DNA from: a bacterium
GTDB taxonomy: Bacteria > Patescibacteriota > Minisyncoccia > JAHIHE01
Assembly (NCBI GenBank): GCA_030693205.1
Contig: JAUYBG010000010.1
Coordinates: forward strand, 2,059-66,058
Direction: 5' to 3'
Length of the DNA: 64,000 nt
In this document: positions 6,593 through 64,000 of the stretch, piece after piece
Position numbering within the stretch: the stretch's first letter is position 1
Layout: each line of letters starts with the position of its first letter
Translations under genes and position numbers: made by a program
The notes under the pieces: model-generated
The model's input: only the letters and a program-made list of their open reading frames with translations
Told to the model about the DNA's origin: nothing
Databases searched by the model: none

Positions 6593-7036
6593 ATGCCAGT
6601 AAAAGTTTACCTAAAAAATTTAAGAACAGCTCCCCGCAAAGTCCGGTTGGTTGCCGATCTCATCAGAGGATTAAGAGTTGATGAAGCGATGGAACAATTG
6701 AAATATATTCCCAAAAGAGCGGCTGTGCCTGTAATGAAACTCCTGGAATCGGCAGTGGCGGCGGCGGAGAATGATTTTAAAATGAAAAAAGAAGATCTGT
6801 TTATTTCAAAAATAACCGTTGATGACGGCGCGACCCTGAAAAGATCCATGCCGCACGCGATGGGCCGGGCTTTCCCGATATTGAAAAGAACGAGCACTGT
6901 CACTATCGAGCTCGATAAAAAAGCCGTAGAGCTGGAAGCGCTGGAAGAAAAAAAATCGGAAGAATCTCGGGAAGTTTTGGCAGGGGAAGCGAAAGAAGAA
7001 GCGCTGAAAAAAAGAAAAAGTAAAAAACAAGAATAA
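6593..7036 (+). CDS. rplV: 50S ribosomal protein L22 with a charged C-terminal extension
   Basis: Sequence LRTAPRKVRLVADLIRG...AMEQLKYIPKRAA. Confidence 0.93.
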   Translation: MPVKVYLKNLRTAPRKVRLVADLIRGLRVDEAMEQLKYIPKRAAVPVMKLLESAVAAAENDFKMKKEDLFISKITVDDGATLKRSMPHAMGRAFPILKRTSTVTIELDKKAVELEALEEKKSEESREVLAGEAKEEALKKRKSKKQE

Positions 7037-35544: not shown

Positions 35545-36349
35545 AATAGGCATTTAGAGAGAAAAACCATCATTAAACTAATTATTAGGGACAGAGACGG
35601 AAACTTTTATTTTATAAATTATTTTATGGAATATTTAACGACAACCTACCAGGAAAGGAAGCGCAAAAGTTAAACGTCATTATTTTAGTTTTATTAATTG
35701 CCCGCTTCCAAGAGAAAGACGGGTTTTTTAGTTAAAAAAAATAAATTTGTGTGAAAATTGCAGTACATTAAAAATAATGTATCGCAATTTCTACACAACA
35801 GTTTGGGTAGAAAGTTCGCTTACAATTTATATTTATTATAGTCTTAAATCGTCAAGAGGATATTTATTTGCTCTGATCTGCCAATTTGGCGGAACAATGC
35901 GGGTAAGATATTCTAAAGTAAACAACCCCGAACCAATCTGCCAGCGAGCAGATGCTACGGGGTAAAAATCTTCAAAACTAGTAATCGCTGATTGCTAGTT
36001 AAAGTAAAAATGAAAAACTCATACTAAGAGTATATGGTGGATGCCTTGACATAAAAAGTCGATGAAGGACGTGGTGTAACTACGAAAAGCCTCGGTGAGC
36101 CGTTAACAGGCCGTGACCCGGGGGTATCCGAATGGGGAAACCCTTCTGAGTAAACCTCAGAAATTATTATCTGAATTAAGTAGGGTAATAAAGAGAACCT
36201 AGGGAAGTGAAACATCTCAGTACCTAGAGGAAAAGAAAAAAATGTTAATATTGATAACGGTGGCAGACATTATTTATTTAATGCCTACATCGGTATCGGT
36301 ATTATTTATTCCCTGAGTAGTGGCGAGCGAAATGGGAAAAGCCTAAACC

Positions 36350-36592
36350 TCTCGATGCGTGACATCGGAATTTTCAAGCACCAATTTTCAAGCACCAAAC
36401 AAAATTTAAATAACCAAAATTCAAAACTCCAAACAAATTGGAATTTAGAAAATTGGGATTTGGAATTTGATTGGGATTTGGAATTTGGGATTTGGAGCTT
36501 CCGCTGTTGCGCAGCGGGTGGTGTTGCAAGGTGGGTGCGTTATCGGAGTAATCCGGTACAGAGCTAACTAAATGTAATTTGATTAGTCAAAT
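36350..36592 (+). repeat. Roughly 220-nt expansion segment with tandem repeats inside the 23S 5' domain
   Basis: It lies between the conserved GAGCCTAAACC and TTCCTGGAAAGGACG. It contains ttttcaagcacca repeated twice and gggatttggaattt-like units repeated three times. Confidence 0.7.
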
Positions 36593-36762
36593 GTTCCTGG
36601 AAAGGACGACCAAAGAGGGTGATAGTCCCGTAGATGAAAATCATTACATGCTCTGAGTATCTATTCTTAAGTACCATAGGGCCAGAGAAACCCTATGGGA
36701 ATCCGGCAGTACTACTAACTTTGTCGCAAGACAAACTGCCAAGGCTAAATACTTTTTATGAT

Positions 36763-36799
<37 letters not shown>

Positions 36800-38252
36800 T
36801 AGCCCGTTTAGGGCAGTGAAATAGAAACTGAAATCATATACTTACAACGAGTGGGAGCCTTGCTTCGGCAGGGTGACCGCGTGCTTTTTGCAGAACGAAC
36901 CAACGAGTTTGCTAGGTATTGCAAGTCTAAGCTCTTCGGAGCGGAGGCGTAGTGAAAGCGAGGGTTAAATACCCGTTTAGCAATACTTACAAGACCCGAA
37001 ACCAGGTGAGCTAGCCATGAGCAGGATGAACCTCAACGAAAGTTGAGGGGAGGTCCGAACCCATTAGCCGTGCAATACTATGGGATGACTTGTGGTTAGG
37101 GATGAAATTTCAATCGAACTTGGTAATAGCTGGTTCTCTCCGAAATAGCTATAGGGCTAGCGTCCTTTGTTCCACTTTGGGGGTAGAGCACTGAATGGAC
37201 ACGGCTGGACTTTTGTCTACCTTGTCCAAACAAACTCCGAATACCAAAGTGCCAGAGAAGGGCAGTCAGAACGTGAGGGCTAAGCTTCACGCTCAAAAGG
37301 GGAACAGCCCAGATCGTCGTCTAAGGTCCCTAAATCTATGCTAAGTGATTTTAAGGAAGTGAGGTTTCTTAAACAGCTAGGAAGTTGGCTTAGAAGCAGC
37401 CATCTTTTAAAGAGTGCGTAACAGCTCACTAGTCTACTGAAATCTTGCGCCGAAAATGTCCGGGGCTAAGCATAGTACCGAAGACACGGGTTGTCATGTC
37501 CTCCGGGATGTGGCAGCGGTAGGAGAGCGTTCCATACGCAGTGAAGTCTGAGCGCGAGTAAAGATGGAGTGTATGGAAGTGAGAATGTTGGTATGAGTAA
37601 CATGAATTATGGTGAGAAACCATAACACCGAAAGCTTAAGGTTTCCTGGGCAACGAAAATCAACCCAGGGTTAGTCGGTCCTAAGGCGAGGTCGAAAGAC
37701 GTAGTCGATGGATAGCTGGTTAATATTCCAGCACTACTATATGTCATGATATGGAAGGACGCAATGTGGGAGGTTGGGCACATTATTGGATTTGTGTCAA
37801 TATCTTGTAGGCTGATTCGCGAGGCAAATCCCGTGGATCTTTGAAAGCAATTTCATAAAAGCCGAGAGATGTTGGAACTTCTGCCTAAGGGCGGGAGAAC
37901 CTAACTGGGGTCATGTTGCCAAGAAAATTTTCTAATTTATCATATAGTAACCGTACCGCAATCCGACACAGGTGAGCAGGCATCAGCGTGCCAAGGTGTA
38001 CGGGAGAACTCTTGTTAAGGAATTCGGCAAAACAACGGCCGTAACTTCGGGATAAGGCCTGCCTATCGCAAGATAGGCTGCAATAAAAGAAATCAGGGCG
38101 ACTGTTTAACAAAAACACAGGTCTATGCTAACCCGCAAGGGGATGTATATGGGCCGACGCTTGTCCAGTGTCAGAACGTTAAGGTTGGAAGTGAAAGCTT
38201 TCGGCTGAAGCGCTGATGAACGACAGCGGTAACTATAACCGTTCTAAGGTAG

Positions 38253-38630
38253 TGGATTTACTTAAGGAAGTGAATTCACTAGGATTGGAACGGCTATAGG
38301 GAGAACAGTCAAGGAAAAAAAGTAGCTGCCCATTTCTGTAAAAAGAAATGTCCATTTGGCCATATGCTGGAAACTCTGGTGAATCTGATGTTACTATGGT
38401 ATAATACGCACATAGACAATATGAGAAAATATTATGCCGAGTAAAAATACATTCAGTGCAGACAATCAGCAGGAAAGGCCAGAAATATTATAATATTTCT
38501 GGAATCCTCAGAGATCAAACGCCAAAACCATTGATAGAAAGATGGTAAGATATGACCCTATCTCTATGGCGACATAGAGGGATATCAACAAATATCCATT
38601 TCGTTTAATGACGGAATAAAAACAAATGAG
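38253..38630 (+). other. Roughly 378-nt insertion in 23S rRNA at the conserved GGUAG|CGAAAUUCC site. It is a candidate ORF-less group I intron or an intervening sequence.
   Basis: The conserved flanks are contiguous in typical 23S rRNAs. The insert is AT-rich with no long ORF. Confidence 0.6.
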
Positions 38631-39191
38631 CGAAATTCCTTGTCACTTAATTAGTGACGTGCATGAATAGCGGAACGACCCTGGTACTGTCTCAACAAGT
38701 GACCCGGTGAAATCGCATTAACAGTGAAGATGCTGTTTACCTGCAGCTAGACGAAAAGACCCTATGAAGCTTTACTATAACTTGGTATTGAGCCAAATTT
38801 TGAAATGCTTAGAATAGGTGGGAGACTTCGATCCTTAATCTCCGGATTAAGGGGAGTCGCAATATGAAATACCACTCTTTTTACAATTTTGTTCTAACCT
38901 CATACCGTAATCCGGTATAGGAACAGTGCCTGGCGGGTAGTTTGACTGGGGCGGTTGCCTCCTAAAAAGTAACGGAGGCGTTTAAAGGTCGGCTAGGCGC
39001 GGATGGAAATCGCGCTGATAGCGCAAAAGCATAAGCCGGCTTTACTGTGAGACTGACGGGTCGAACAGTTGCGAAAGCAGAATTTAGTGATCCGATGTGT
39101 CCATGTAGGTGGCACAAAGCTCAACGGATAAAAGCTACTCTAGGGATAACAGGCTAGTCCAGTCCAAGCGTCCATAGCGACGACTGGGTTC

Positions 39192-39227
<36 letters not shown>

Positions 39228-39775
39228 AAGAAGCTCCCAAGGGTTTGGCTGTTCGCCAACTAAAGCGGTACGTGAGCTGGGTTCAAACCGTCGTGAGACA
39301 GGTTGGACTCCTATCTACTGCAGGCGTAGATACTTGCGAGAACTCTTTTCTAGTACGAGAGGACCGAAAAGAACGAACCTCTGGTGCACCAATTGTCATG
39401 CCAATGGCATAGTTGGGTAGCTAAGTTCGGACGAGATAAACGCTGAAAGCATATAAGCGTGAAACTCATCTCAAGATTAGGTATCATAGATTCCAGAGAG
39501 ATGATCTGGTAAAATTCTGTCGCAAGACAGAACTGATAGGGTGCAGGTGTAAGTGTAGCAATACATTCAGCCGAGCACTACTAATGAATCATTGGAGTTT
39601 TTCATAACTTACTTTAACCGGCAATTAGCGGGTGTTATGAGAAGATAATGTTTATGATTGATTTGAATACTATATAAATATAAATTTAAGGGAATACGAA
39701 TTTTAGGTATTTACCCCGTTAAATAAAATTTTAATAAATTTTGGATTGTTTTTTTTACAATTCATTTAATAGGGG

Positions 39776-40303: not shown

Positions 40304-40421
40304 TGCCCCGGTGCTATAATGGCGGTAATGTACCACCTCTTCCCATTCCGAACAGAGTCGTGAAAGTTACCAGCGCCGATGGTAGTTGGTTTACCAGCGA
40401 GAGTAGGCCAGTGCCGGGGCA
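40304..40421 (+). rRNA. rrf: 5S rRNA
   Basis: TGCCCCGGTG...CCATTCCGAAC...GCGCCGATGGTAG...GAGAGTAGG...CCGGGGCA. Confidence 0.9.
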
Positions 40422-47615: not shown

Positions 47616-47732
47616 AATATAGATTAAAATATTTACAATCTAAAAGCCCTGCTTTTTTGCAGGGCTTTTAGATTGTTTTTTCCTCCATAAAGTTTTATTT
47701 TTAGAGAGTGCGTTGCATATTTAAATTTTATT

Positions 47733-60361: not shown

Positions 60362-61003
60362 ATGCTTAAGTCGGTAAATAAAATTATTAAAGTTTTAGTG
60401 CTCGGAGACGCTTTTTTGAATAGCGGCTGGGGTTTGATAGCGCCTGTTTTTGCGATTTATATAATTCAAAATATCAAGGGAGGGGATATAATGGTGGCAG
60501 GTTTTGCCGCAGCGGTTTATTGGATCGTGAAAAGCATTATTCAGATGCCATTCGCGAAATATCTCGACAGGAACCATGGAGAAAAGGATGATTTTTATGC
60601 GGTATTTTTTGGCTTATTGCTGGTCAGCTTGGTTCCTTTGGGCTATATGGTTTCGACGCTGCCATGGCACATATACGCGTTTCAAATTTTGTACGCGATC
60701 GGGATGGCATTGGTGGTTCCTGCCTGGTTCGGGCTTTATACCAGGCATATTGATAAAGGGAAAGAAGCGTATGAATGGAGCGTTTATAGCACTTCTTTTG
60801 GTTTTATAGCGGGGATTTCCGGCGCTATTGGCGGAGTGATCGCGGCGGCGATCGGATTCAAGATTATTTTTTTACTGATCAGCTTTTTTACGATTATGGC
60901 GGCGACCATTTTTTATTCCCTTCGCGACGAGATCACAGCGGTTCATATTCATAATACCAGTGTAAAAGCGGTCGATGTGCCAGCTGAAAAATTGCGTTTT
61001 TAG
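60362..61003 (+). CDS. Hypothetical six-TM membrane protein (MFS-half-like)
   Basis: Six hydrophobic helices. Confidence 0.45.
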   Translation: MLKSVNKIIKVLVLGDAFLNSGWGLIAPVFAIYIIQNIKGGDIMVAGFAAAVYWIVKSIIQMPFAKYLDRNHGEKDDFYAVFFGLLLVSLVPLGYMVSTLPWHIYAFQILYAIGMALVVPAWFGLYTRHIDKGKEAYEWSVYSTSFGFIAGISGAIGGVIAAAIGFKIIFLLISFFTIMAATIFYSLRDEITAVHIHNTSVKAVDVPAEKLRF

Positions 61004-61175
61004 GCTCTTAATTTATCATAAAACTCTTTATATTAAAGGTTGTTTGACAGGGTTGACATTAAATTGGCAATGAAGTATAATGGATTTAGATATAAAGTAA
61101 AACCCAAGCGAGGGTTTTTTAAAATCCCCCAGCTTTATAGTGGTTAGTTTGAGTCAGTAATGTAAAAAGAAACAT

Positions 61176-62420: not shown

Positions 62421-63113
62421 ATGGCTCGATCAAAAAGATACAAAAAACTAGAGAGTAAAGTCGATAAAACGAAAATTTACGATATTGATGAAGCTTTCAA
62501 GGCTTTAAAAGATTTAGCCAGCGCTAAATTCGATGAAGCGGTTGAAGTTCATGTTAAATTGGGAATTGACGCTTCGAAAGCCGATCAAGCGATCAGAGGA
62601 ATGGTCAGTTTGCCGAATGGAACGGGCAAGACAAAAAAAATCGCCGTATTCGCGGAAAGCGCGAAAGGCGAAGAGGCAAAAAAAGCCGGCGCTGATATAG
62701 TCGGCGGGGAAGATCTGATCGCGAAAATAAAACAAACGGGAAAGATCGAATTTGATATCGCGGTGGCCACTCCCGATATGATGAAAAAACTGGCTCCGAT
62801 CGCCAAAATTTTGGGTCCCAAAGGCTTGATGCCTTCGCCGAAAACGGAAACCGTGACTATGGATATCGCGAAAGTTGTCGGCGAGCTTAAAAAAGGCAAA
62901 GCCGAATTTCGTTCCGATGATTCGGGAAACGTGCATATTTCTATCGGGAAGATATCTTTTGATCCGGCAAAACTCAGGGAAAATTTCATTGAATTCTTGA
63001 GTACTTTGAAAAATACCCGGCCTGCCGCCACCAAAGGCGAATTTATCAAGGGAGCGGCGATCTCGACCACTATGGGTCCGTCTTTAAAAGTTAATTTTTC
63101 AGTAAAAAAATAA
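62421..63113 (+). CDS. rplA: 50S ribosomal protein L1 (start at MARSKRY)
   Basis: Sequence KRYKKLESKVDKTKIYDIDEAFKALKD...PDMMKKLAPIAKILGPKGLMPSPK. The ORF-track start at 62376 was trimmed. Confidence 0.92.
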   Translation: MARSKRYKKLESKVDKTKIYDIDEAFKALKDLASAKFDEAVEVHVKLGIDASKADQAIRGMVSLPNGTGKTKKIAVFAESAKGEEAKKAGADIVGGEDLIAKIKQTGKIEFDIAVATPDMMKKLAPIAKILGPKGLMPSPKTETVTMDIAKVVGELKKGKAEFRSDDSGNVHISIGKISFDPAKLRENFIEFLSTLKNTRPAATKGEFIKGAAISTTMGPSLKVNFSVKK

Positions 63114-63131
63114 ACTTAAAATAAACCCATT

Positions 63132-63527
63132 ATGTTTAAAATCAATTTAAAAAATGTTTTAAGGATTATATTGATAGGTTTGGGAATATTGCTGGTGATC
63201 ATTGCTCTTGGAGTTATCAGCTCGAGAGTCGCAAGTAAGGATAGCAATATAAAAATTGAATACACGATTAGTGATACAAGCAGCACGACGGTTTTTGAAG
63301 CTTTAAAAAGCCATACTGAAAAGAATAAAATTGAATTAACATATAATTATAACTTTCCGAAGCTTGGCGTTCTGGTTGATAGTATTGTCGGAATAAAAAG
63401 CGGTACGGATAATAAATATTGGCAGTATTATGTCAATGATAAACTGGGCGAGGTGGCGGCGGATAAGAAGGAAATAAAAGCGGGCGATAAGGTGGAATGG
63501 AAATTTGAAAAAGTGCCGGAATTCTAA
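63132..63527 (+). CDS. Hypothetical membrane-anchored small protein (131 aa)
   Basis: N-terminal TM plus a roughly 100-aa domain. It sits where rplJ/rplL would be expected. Confidence 0.45.
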   Translation: MFKINLKNVLRIILIGLGILLVIIALGVISSRVASKDSNIKIEYTISDTSSTTVFEALKSHTEKNKIELTYNYNFPKLGVLVDSIVGIKSGTDNKYWQYYVNDKLGEVAADKKEIKAGDKVEWKFEKVPEF

Positions 63528-63599
63528 TTTTGTTTAAAAATAGCTCTTAGGCAAATTTATTAAAACTAAATTTGTTTTTAAGCTGTTCTTAAATCGAGG

Positions 63600-63795
63600 C
63601 AAGGATAGCCGTGAATTGAGATATTGAGCGAGGAGAATCCAAATAAATGAGATTCGTTATCTTAATTTATGAATAGACTACAGATACTCGCATCTGAGGA
63701 AAATTTGAACCTTGAAAGGAAAGCGGTTGGATAATTATGCAATCAGGGAAAGCCATGAAACTGTGAGATAACAATATCCAACCGCCCATCTAATC
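63600..63795 (+). ncRNA. Candidate cis-regulatory structured RNA (riboswitch-like leader with partial TPP-aptamer-like motifs)
   Basis: CAGAT/ATCTG hairpin followed by CTGAGG, then GAACCTTGA, GGATAAT and AGGGAA in TPP-aptamer order. An 11-bp perfect stem GCGGTTGGATA / TATCCAACCGCC ends 10 nt before the downstream ATG. Confidence 0.3.
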
Positions 63796-64000
63796 TTATG
63801 AATAAATTAAACATAAAATATAGTTTAATCATTGGTTTGGGAATAATTATTTTTGGCGTGATTGCCAGATTTTTTTTGCTAAAATTCGTCGGTATTCCTA
63901 ATTTTGAGATCATTACCGCGCTTACTTTGGTCAGCGCTGTTTTTTTGGGCCGGGCGTGGGGAATTGTCGTGCCGCTTTCGATCATTGCCATAACTGATGT
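63796..64000 (+). CDS. 5' part of a polytopic membrane protein, possibly an ECF-type S component or vitamin transporter, truncated by the window end
   Basis: ATG at 63796. The translation MNKLNIKYSLIIGLGIIIFGVIARFFLLKFVGIPNFEIITALTLVSAVFLGRAWGIVVPLSIIAITD stays open to the window end. Confidence 0.4.

Follow-up and report, generated by a model that had tools for sequence, protein, structure and literature searches.

Genes flanking the spacer

The analysed stretch of DNA (64 kb, hereafter the window) belongs to an uncultured member of the Patescibacteria (CPR), the genome of which was assembled from a metagenome. Towards the 3' end of the window the gene order is secE-nusG-rplK-rplA-DUF4430, followed by a spacer of 270 nt and then by DUF6580. 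The promoter upstream of this cluster and the two genes that border the spacer are as follows.

61053-61081, + strand: sigma-70-type promoter, TTGACA-17-TATAAT, with 12/12 consensus matches, upstream of secE
63132-63527, + strand: gene for a DUF4430 protein of 131 aa that has a membrane anchor or signal at its N-terminus; Pfam PF14478, E = 2.3e-17
63798-64000, + strand: 5' part of the DUF6580 gene, ATG at 63798, cut by the window end

The promoter at 61053-61081 probably drives secE-nusG-rplK-rplA-DUF4430 in the window genome. An initial annotation had described the region ahead of DUF6580 as the structured leader of a membrane gene. Because of the gene order, and because the promoter lies ahead of secE, this region is not the leader of an operon and is instead the intercistronic spacer between DUF4430 and DUF6580. 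DUF4430 starts 18 nt past rplA in the window. Compared to the closely related loci L016 (positions 710-890) and L017 (888-1068), ~97 nt are deleted from the window at 63090-63131, and with them the stop codon of rplA and its spacer to DUF4430. Through this deletion the rplA of the window gains a new C-terminus, KVNFSVKK*. The corresponding spacer in L016 and L017 has a promoter-like site, TTTACT-N17-TATAAT. With this promoter-bearing 97-nt spacer gone, DUF4430 in the window therefore probably rides on the r-protein transcript.

To obtain the full DUF6580 gene, we used an identical Logan contig, L014, which runs past the window end. The 67 aa encoded within the window matched the Pfam model of DUF6580 (PF20221) with E = 4e-6 and 27.5 bits, above the gathering score. 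The full 221 aa from L014 matched with E = 5.7e-33, and the model was also matched by all 25 of 25 relatives. The description of the downstream gene as encoding a polytopic membrane protein is thus borne out. Using the 67-aa fragment as the query, the homologue search returned no matches; the full-length L014 protein did yield homologues. The model for ECF S components, PF12822, was matched by one of the 25 DUF6580 members (E = 0.039), and this match is precomputed for two distant homologues. There was no sequence match for the DUF6580 protein in the PDB. A Foldseek search with an AF2 model (pLDDT 71) gave ThiT (4tkr_B) as the sole notable transporter-like match, and this was non-significant (probability 0.51, TM ~0.4, E = 1).

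Just past the window end, the DUF6580 gene has an in-frame insertion of ~38 aa (ESPAGGECGNLV...LLRRFASRNDS; L014 6979-7092). A palindromic element with CTCGCAATGACAG at its end encodes the insertion, and the corresponding loop of relatives has a different insertion or lacks one. A kindred palindrome (CTGTCATTGCGAGG...AGAATGACAG) occupies the DUF4430-DUF6580 spacer of L018 (1199-1362).

A Shine-Dalgarno (SD)-like motif at -18 to -4 was found for 6 of the 48 long ORFs in the window, and the upstream regions are A/U-rich and G-poor. This suggests that initiation is mostly SD-independent in window genes. Since SD use is this rare, an expression platform that works by sequestering an SD sequence is inapplicable here.

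Other genes of the window also have unusual features. Positions 60362-61003 encode an MFS_1-like protein of 213 aa, about half the normal MFS length, with ~6 TM helices. The 23S rRNA gene (36012-39605) spans 3594 nt compared to 2925 nt for the model, with insertions of 62, 158 and 22 nt and more, and the 5S rRNA gene (40307-40419) lies ~700 nt downstream of it. No 16S rRNA gene was found within the 64-kb window, so the rRNA genes seem unlinked.

Structure and conservation of the spacer

The 270-nt spacer consists of three hairpin modules, M1, M2 and M3, followed by a short unstructured stretch that runs up to the DUF6580 start codon.

63532-63593, + strand: hairpin M1, starting 4-6 nt past the DUF4430 stop; z = -4.75
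63594-63715, + strand: module M2; z = -2.64 on the + strand compared to -0.78 on the - strand
63594-63599 / 63710-63715, + strand: closing helix P1 of M2, with two pairs changed on both sides (compensatory)
63610-63671, + strand: inner AU-rich long hairpin of M2, enclosed by P1
63681-63696, + strand: inner small hairpin of M2, CAGAU/AUCUG, which is CAGAC/GUCUG in L035
63716-63722, + strand: A-rich linker between M2 and M3, AAGGAAA in the window and AAAAAA, AAAAA or AAAUGAAA in relatives
63723-63785, + strand: hairpin M3, which includes the previously noted 11-bp stem; z = -4.77
63786-63797, + strand: pre-start stretch, G-free, pyrimidine-rich and unstructured, with no Shine-Dalgarno sequence; G-poor in relatives too

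Folding of the whole spacer (a 283-nt region) gave z = -3.95, and none of 200 shuffles folded as well. This value, and that of -4.77 for the 3' hairpin, therefore indicate that the structure is real and above chance. The strings and hairpins reported in the initial annotation are all present. CAGAT is at 63681-63685, ATCTG at 63692-63696, CTGAGG at 63694-63699, GAACCTTGA at 63707-63715, GGATAAT at 63728-63734 and AGGGAA at 63745-63750, all as read from the sequence. The perfect 11-bp inverted repeat, GCGGTTGGATA (63723-63733) / TATCCAACCGC (63775-63785), is also present, but the gap between it and the ATG at 63798 is 12 nt and not 10 nt. The structured element extends to the left of 63600, since both M1 (63532-63593) and, at 63594-63599, the first strand of P1 lie upstream of that position.

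Twelve syntenic loci were fetched through DUF6580 homologues and their spacers were compared. The homologous modular element is present in the window and in L017, L020, L035, L036 and L037, and partial copies are present in L019 and L021. Relative to the window, the DUF6580 proteins of the element-bearing loci are ~64-71% identical and the DUF4430 proteins 37-92%. Across these relatives the hairpin tips have been replaced wholesale and the stem bases kept. The base of M1, UUUAAAAAYAGC / GCUGUUCUUAAA, is near-invariant in six loci, including an A.C mismatch that is conserved in five of the six sequences, and the apical part is variable. RNAalifold on a MAFFT alignment recovered M1 independently, with 23 pairs of which 4 were compensatory. 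M1 is separated from P1 by a linker of only 0-1 nt. In the window, L017, L035 and L037 the interior of P1 is a three-way junction of 83-125 nt, and in L020 and L036 it is no more than a 32-nt hairpin. The base of M3 is GCGGUUGRAUAAU / AUUAUYCAACCGC, and in L036 and L037 it is GGCUGARUAAU / AUURUUCAGCC. The tip of M3 (40-55 nt), which contains AGGGAA in the window, is hypervariable, and the tips of different relatives share almost nothing.

The comparison drew on six full and two partial sequences, several of them close kin. For M3, the alignment of seven sequences had 13 aligned pairs with 97.8% of the cells paired, and 4 of the 13 pairs were changed on both sides. They include a replacement of G-C by A-U between the sister sequences (window, L017) and of U-A by C-G in both L036 and L037. 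The M3 covariation score was 0.359 compared to 0.215 for shuffles, with none of 500 shuffles scoring as high, and the signal collapsed when the partners were slid by 1-3 columns. Wobble cells in M3 were exclusively G.U (8 G.U, no A.C), which fits selection acting on the sense-strand RNA. In M1 and P1, wobble and A.C-type cells were about equal in number, so this measure is informative for M3 only. The MFE values summed over six sequences were -117 kcal/mol on the + strand and -109 kcal/mol on the - strand for M1, -129 and -101 kcal/mol for M2, and -133 and -116 kcal/mol for M3. The structure is best read as sense-strand RNA. The proposal of a structured RNA 5' of the membrane gene is therefore upheld, as the structure is real, strand-specific and partly conserved.

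The remaining loci showed a range of spacer states. M3 is the sole module left in L019, where its 5' arm overlaps the DUF4430 stop; in L021 the 3' arm of M3 is at the contig start, and L038 has a remnant of 61 nt. In L016 the whole element is gone by a clean indel of ~262-265 nt within flanking DNA that is 88-96% identical, leaving 5 nt between the genes and an intact transporter gene. Since more distant relatives have the element, it was most simply lost in L016. In L001, L015 and L018 the gap is filled by unrelated long palindromes, and in L002, L006, L007 and L012 there is essentially no gap between the genes. The element is thus absent, truncated or replaced in L016, L019, L038, L001, L015, L018 and L002 with DUF6580 intact, and it is dispensable in close relatives. 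This repeated erosion implies that selection on the element is weak or conditional. A covariation analysis with the leaders of homologous transporters, as proposed in the initial annotation, gave a mixed outcome: five relatives share the modules and M3 covaries, but other relatives have no element or have unrelated palindromes in its place.

Several other identities for the spacer, or for parts of it, were considered and rejected. M3 contains GTTRRRY/RYYYAAC-like strings reminiscent of an attC site, but their order is wrong and L036 and L037 have lost them. A hammerhead core was suggested by CUGAGGA, which lacks stem II and is unconserved. No sigma-70-like promoter was called on the + strand within the spacer, and reading the -10-like GATAAT in M3 as a promoter would clash with the RNA-level covariation. 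Candidate leader peptides or uORFs (a 21-codon ORF at 63669 and a 9-codon ORF after GAGGAG) are unconserved beyond L017. A remnant of an L10 leader was rejected, with no rplJ or rplL nearby and no match to RF00557. Pairing of 63662-63675 with the start region at 63797-63810 (12/14) was not seen in other relatives.

Two further similarities were observed within the spacer. Positions 63659-63686 inside M2 (ATCTTAATTTATGAATAGACTACAGATA) are 75% identical over 28 nt to the DUF6580 start at 63788-63815 (ATCTAATCTTATGAATAAATTAAACATA), which could be the trace of an old gene-start duplication as part of the spacer arose, or AT-rich chance. Strong SD-like AGGAG(G) strings are present in variable tips of the spacer (window 63627-63640, L035 2340-2356, L036 1040-1056), and no conserved start codon follows them across these relatives.

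Known riboswitches and the vitamin context

The initial annotation had interpreted the short strings of the spacer as partial aptamer motifs of a divergent TPP (thiamine pyrophosphate) riboswitch. The resemblance consists of a few strings like CUGAGA, ACCUGAUC, GGAUAAU and AGGGA in the right order, within a three-way-junction-like fold that, as in RF00059, precedes a small vitamin-transporter-like membrane protein. A search of the whole window with Rfam (4227 families) at the gathering threshold detected only rRNA and tRNA. At E<=10, region 63400-64000 gave only noise (eukaryotic lncRNA, miRNA and snoRNA models) and neither a TPP nor a cobalamin match, and at E<=1 the spacers of L017, L020, L035, L036 and L037 gave no matches. 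As a positive control, the same scan detected RF00174 in L013, L004 and L012. The cmscan check that had been proposed with RF00059 and other riboswitch models thus returned no riboswitch match in the window, and RF00059 was unmatched at E<=10 in the window and at E<=1 in the five homologous spacers.

The strings themselves are either unconserved or located in helices with other partners. GGAUAAU forms the 5' side of the M3 helix (11-16 bp), pairs with a partner ~40 nt away with compensatory changes, and is not part of a P4/P5 hairpin or loop. GAACCUUGA carries the 3' strand of P1, the closing helix of M2. AGGGAA sits in the hairpin tip that is replaced in every relative. CUGAGG is found only in the window and L017, with CUGUGA at that place in L035, and the CAGAU arm is absent in L020 and L036. 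The conserved CUGAGA and ACCUGAUCUGGAUAAUGCCAGCG blocks of RF00059 were not retained in the homologues. Nor was an association with genes for thiamine synthesis or transport found, the neighbouring DUF6580 and DUF4430 being tied to cobalamin riboswitches elsewhere. The TPP-aptamer resemblance is thus no greater than chance, and with RF00059 unmatched, the strings otherwise paired or unconserved and a gene context of B12 rather than thiamine, the TPP reading is almost certainly wrong. The TPP call is a false positive, of a kind that short strings resembling an aptamer can produce in AT-rich leaders.

DUF4430 and DUF6580 occur in this order as a conserved gene pair. In L012, RF00174 (41.5 bits) lies ahead of an operon whose products are a toroid+DUF4430 protein of 590 aa, a protein of 204 aa, DUF4430 and DUF6580. 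In L013, RF00174 (90 bits) is located ~350 nt upstream of the DUF4430 gene with no long + strand ORF in between, and L004 also has RF00174 upstream (42 bits). The same families are therefore under cobalamin riboswitches in other Patescibacteria and in Firmicutes (L012, L004 and L013). Because DUF4430 and DUF6580 sit behind cobalamin riboswitches elsewhere, the relevant vitamin is B12 and not thiamine. This association in other taxa suggests that DUF4430 and DUF6580 are likely a B12 uptake pair, in which the DUF4430 product is probably a corrinoid-binding protein. The earlier view that a vitamin transporter lies downstream is accordingly retained as probable, but its assignment to thiamine is not, since the cobalamin riboswitches mark the gene context as B12. 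About 3.4 kb downstream of the gene pair, L014 (10747-12222) encodes a 491-aa protein with MtrA (a corrinoid-binding domain), thymidylate synthase and PterinBD-DUF4346 domains, which may be a B12-dependent enzyme.

The element in the window differs from the cobalamin riboswitches that control these families. The window and the homologous spacers had no covariance-model match to RF00174, and the window element has neither the B12 box nor the GGUGAAAAUCC...CAACUGUAA core seen in L004, as judged by comparing the cores by eye. The minimal forms of the element are also far too small and too variable. We next considered whether the element could be a new ligand-sensing RNA, perhaps for a corrinoid, that replaces the cobalamin riboswitch, with the bases of M1, P1 and M3 forming a pocket and the tips being decoration. 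A cobalamin riboswitch controls the gene pair in L012 and DUF4430 in L013, and the window has no known riboswitch. The helix bases are conserved in sequence with variable peripheral stems, M1 abuts P1, and an A-rich linker leads to M3, all of which would suit a sensor. However, the junction nucleotides of M2 are poorly conserved with only few invariant columns in the alignment, so that a generic riboswitch aptamer core was not found. M2 also differs in size, being a hairpin of 32 nt at its smallest and a three-way junction of 125 nt at its largest, M3 stands alone in L019, and all modules are gone in L016 at 88-96% flanking identity. Furthermore, inspection found no conserved alternative pairing, such as an anti-terminator or start-codon sequestration, and there is no U-tract behind the window M3. 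A ligand sensor is therefore very unlikely. The related proposal that M1, P1 and M3 make up an undescribed Patescibacteria-specific regulatory RNA class, whose control of DUF6580 would work through a sensed corrinoid or other small molecule or through a dedicated binding protein, is only slightly better placed and still quite improbable. If true, such a class would stand in for the cobalamin riboswitch by which DUF4430 and DUF6580 are controlled elsewhere.

Origin and predicted role of the element

A further explanation is that the spacer is the decaying, functionless remnant of an inserted palindromic (MITE-/PATE-like) element, the apparent compensatory changes of which would have arisen by palindrome correction (template switching). 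Close strains differ by presence or absence of the element, the clean indel is bounded by short repeats (CTAAT/TAA), and the element has eroded in several lineages (L019, L038). The lineage also has mobile palindromes, one of them in frame in the window's own DUF6580 and a kindred one in the L018 spacer. MITE-like CPR palindromes of the GTCATTGCGAG...CTCGCAATGAC type resemble the element in being hairpin-forming and indel-polymorphic and in occupying the same spacer in L018, but the window element is unrelated to them in sequence, single-copy and vertically inherited, with RNA-type covariation. No second copy of the spacer was found in the 64-kb window, where the one exact 13-mer match (6618-6630) lies inside a long coding-length ORF and forms no hairpin, and there are no terminal inverted repeats. 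The junction repeats of the L016 indel are ambiguous as a target-site duplication. A blastn search of the spacer against phage and plasmid collections gave no match. A metagenome pattern scan for the M3 arms (GCGGTTGRATAA...TATYCARCCGY) gave 13 matches, each of them in an unrelated GC-rich context with neither DUF4430 nor DUF6580 present, and a viral pattern scan for the M1 base gave chance matches, mostly within coding DNA. In addition, the element is held at the same locus across relatives with neighbouring proteins down to 37% identity, over which neutral DNA would not survive, and the wobbles of M3 are G.U only (8:0), as for selection on sense-strand RNA. A mobile remnant is thus unlikely, although less so than a sensor.

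We put the chance at about even that the spacer is a dispensable cis-acting mRNA structure without a ligand. Such an element would probably insulate the membrane gene from the highly expressed r-protein/DUF4430 transcript upstream, or tune its expression against that transcript. The hairpins would act in cis on the mRNA and uncouple the DUF4430 and DUF6580 cistrons. M1, located 4-6 nt past the DUF4430 stop, may weakly attenuate the abundant secE-nusG-rplKA-DUF4430 transcript and/or protect its 3' end. M2 and M3, which are stable and end 12-24 nt before the start codon, may limit or set the amount or translation of read-through DUF6580 mRNA. A stack of hairpins that starts right past the stop codon and ends at an SD-less, G-free start region would be well placed to attenuate read-through and to tune the membrane cistron, and we infer an attenuator/stabiliser mechanism of this kind. 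A terminator scan called neither M1 nor M3, and neither looks like a canonical intrinsic terminator: the base of M1 is A-tract/U-rich (UUCUUAAAU), although its stem is weak, and no U-tract follows M3 in the window. The canonical form in this genome is exemplified by a perfect 18-bp bidirectional intrinsic terminator between convergent genes at 47635-47676 (AAAAGCCCTGC...GCAGGGCTTTT), which has a GC-rich stem and a U-tract and from which M1 and M3 look different.

Hairpins between the gene for a binding protein and the genes for membrane components set differential expression in malEFG and hisJQMP. Like the REP/BIME hairpins of enterobacteria (malE-malF, hisJ-hisQ), the element in the window comprises stable sense-strand hairpins that begin just past the stop of a probable binding-protein gene and precede a gene for a membrane component, and it is likewise dispensable, strain-variable and, on this reading, without a ligand. 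In contrast to the REP/BIME hairpins, it is single-copy and locus-specific within the 64-kb window rather than a dispersed repeat family. It also consists of three distinct modules with conserved stem-base sequences, and its role here is predicted from sequence.

One feature does not fit this simple model. The bases of M1 (GCUGUUCUUAAAU) and M3 are near-invariant although the flanking proteins have strongly diverged. This conservation exceeds what the stability of a hairpin needs, which hints that a specific protein, RNA or ligand recognises these bases, and it is the strongest point left unexplained by the simple model. It would be accommodated by a protein-binding regulatory or processing site, in which a double-strand RNase or an RNA-binding repressor would read the conserved stem bases, with the A.C mismatch of M1 kept in five of six sequences and the tips free to vary. 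However, no candidate protein was identified, the element is dispensable in L016, and no similar site is present elsewhere in the 64-kb window. We regard such a protein site as rather improbable.

Together, these results describe a covarying sense-strand RNA structure that is absent from Rfam, had not been described before and has to date been seen in no more than a small clade of uncultured Patescibacteria. As a cis-acting structure without a ligand, it would probably have a modest regulatory role. Natural strains with the element (the window, L017) and without it (L016) provide a ready-made comparison. Because these organisms are unable to synthesise most cofactors, the control of their vitamin uptake is of interest.
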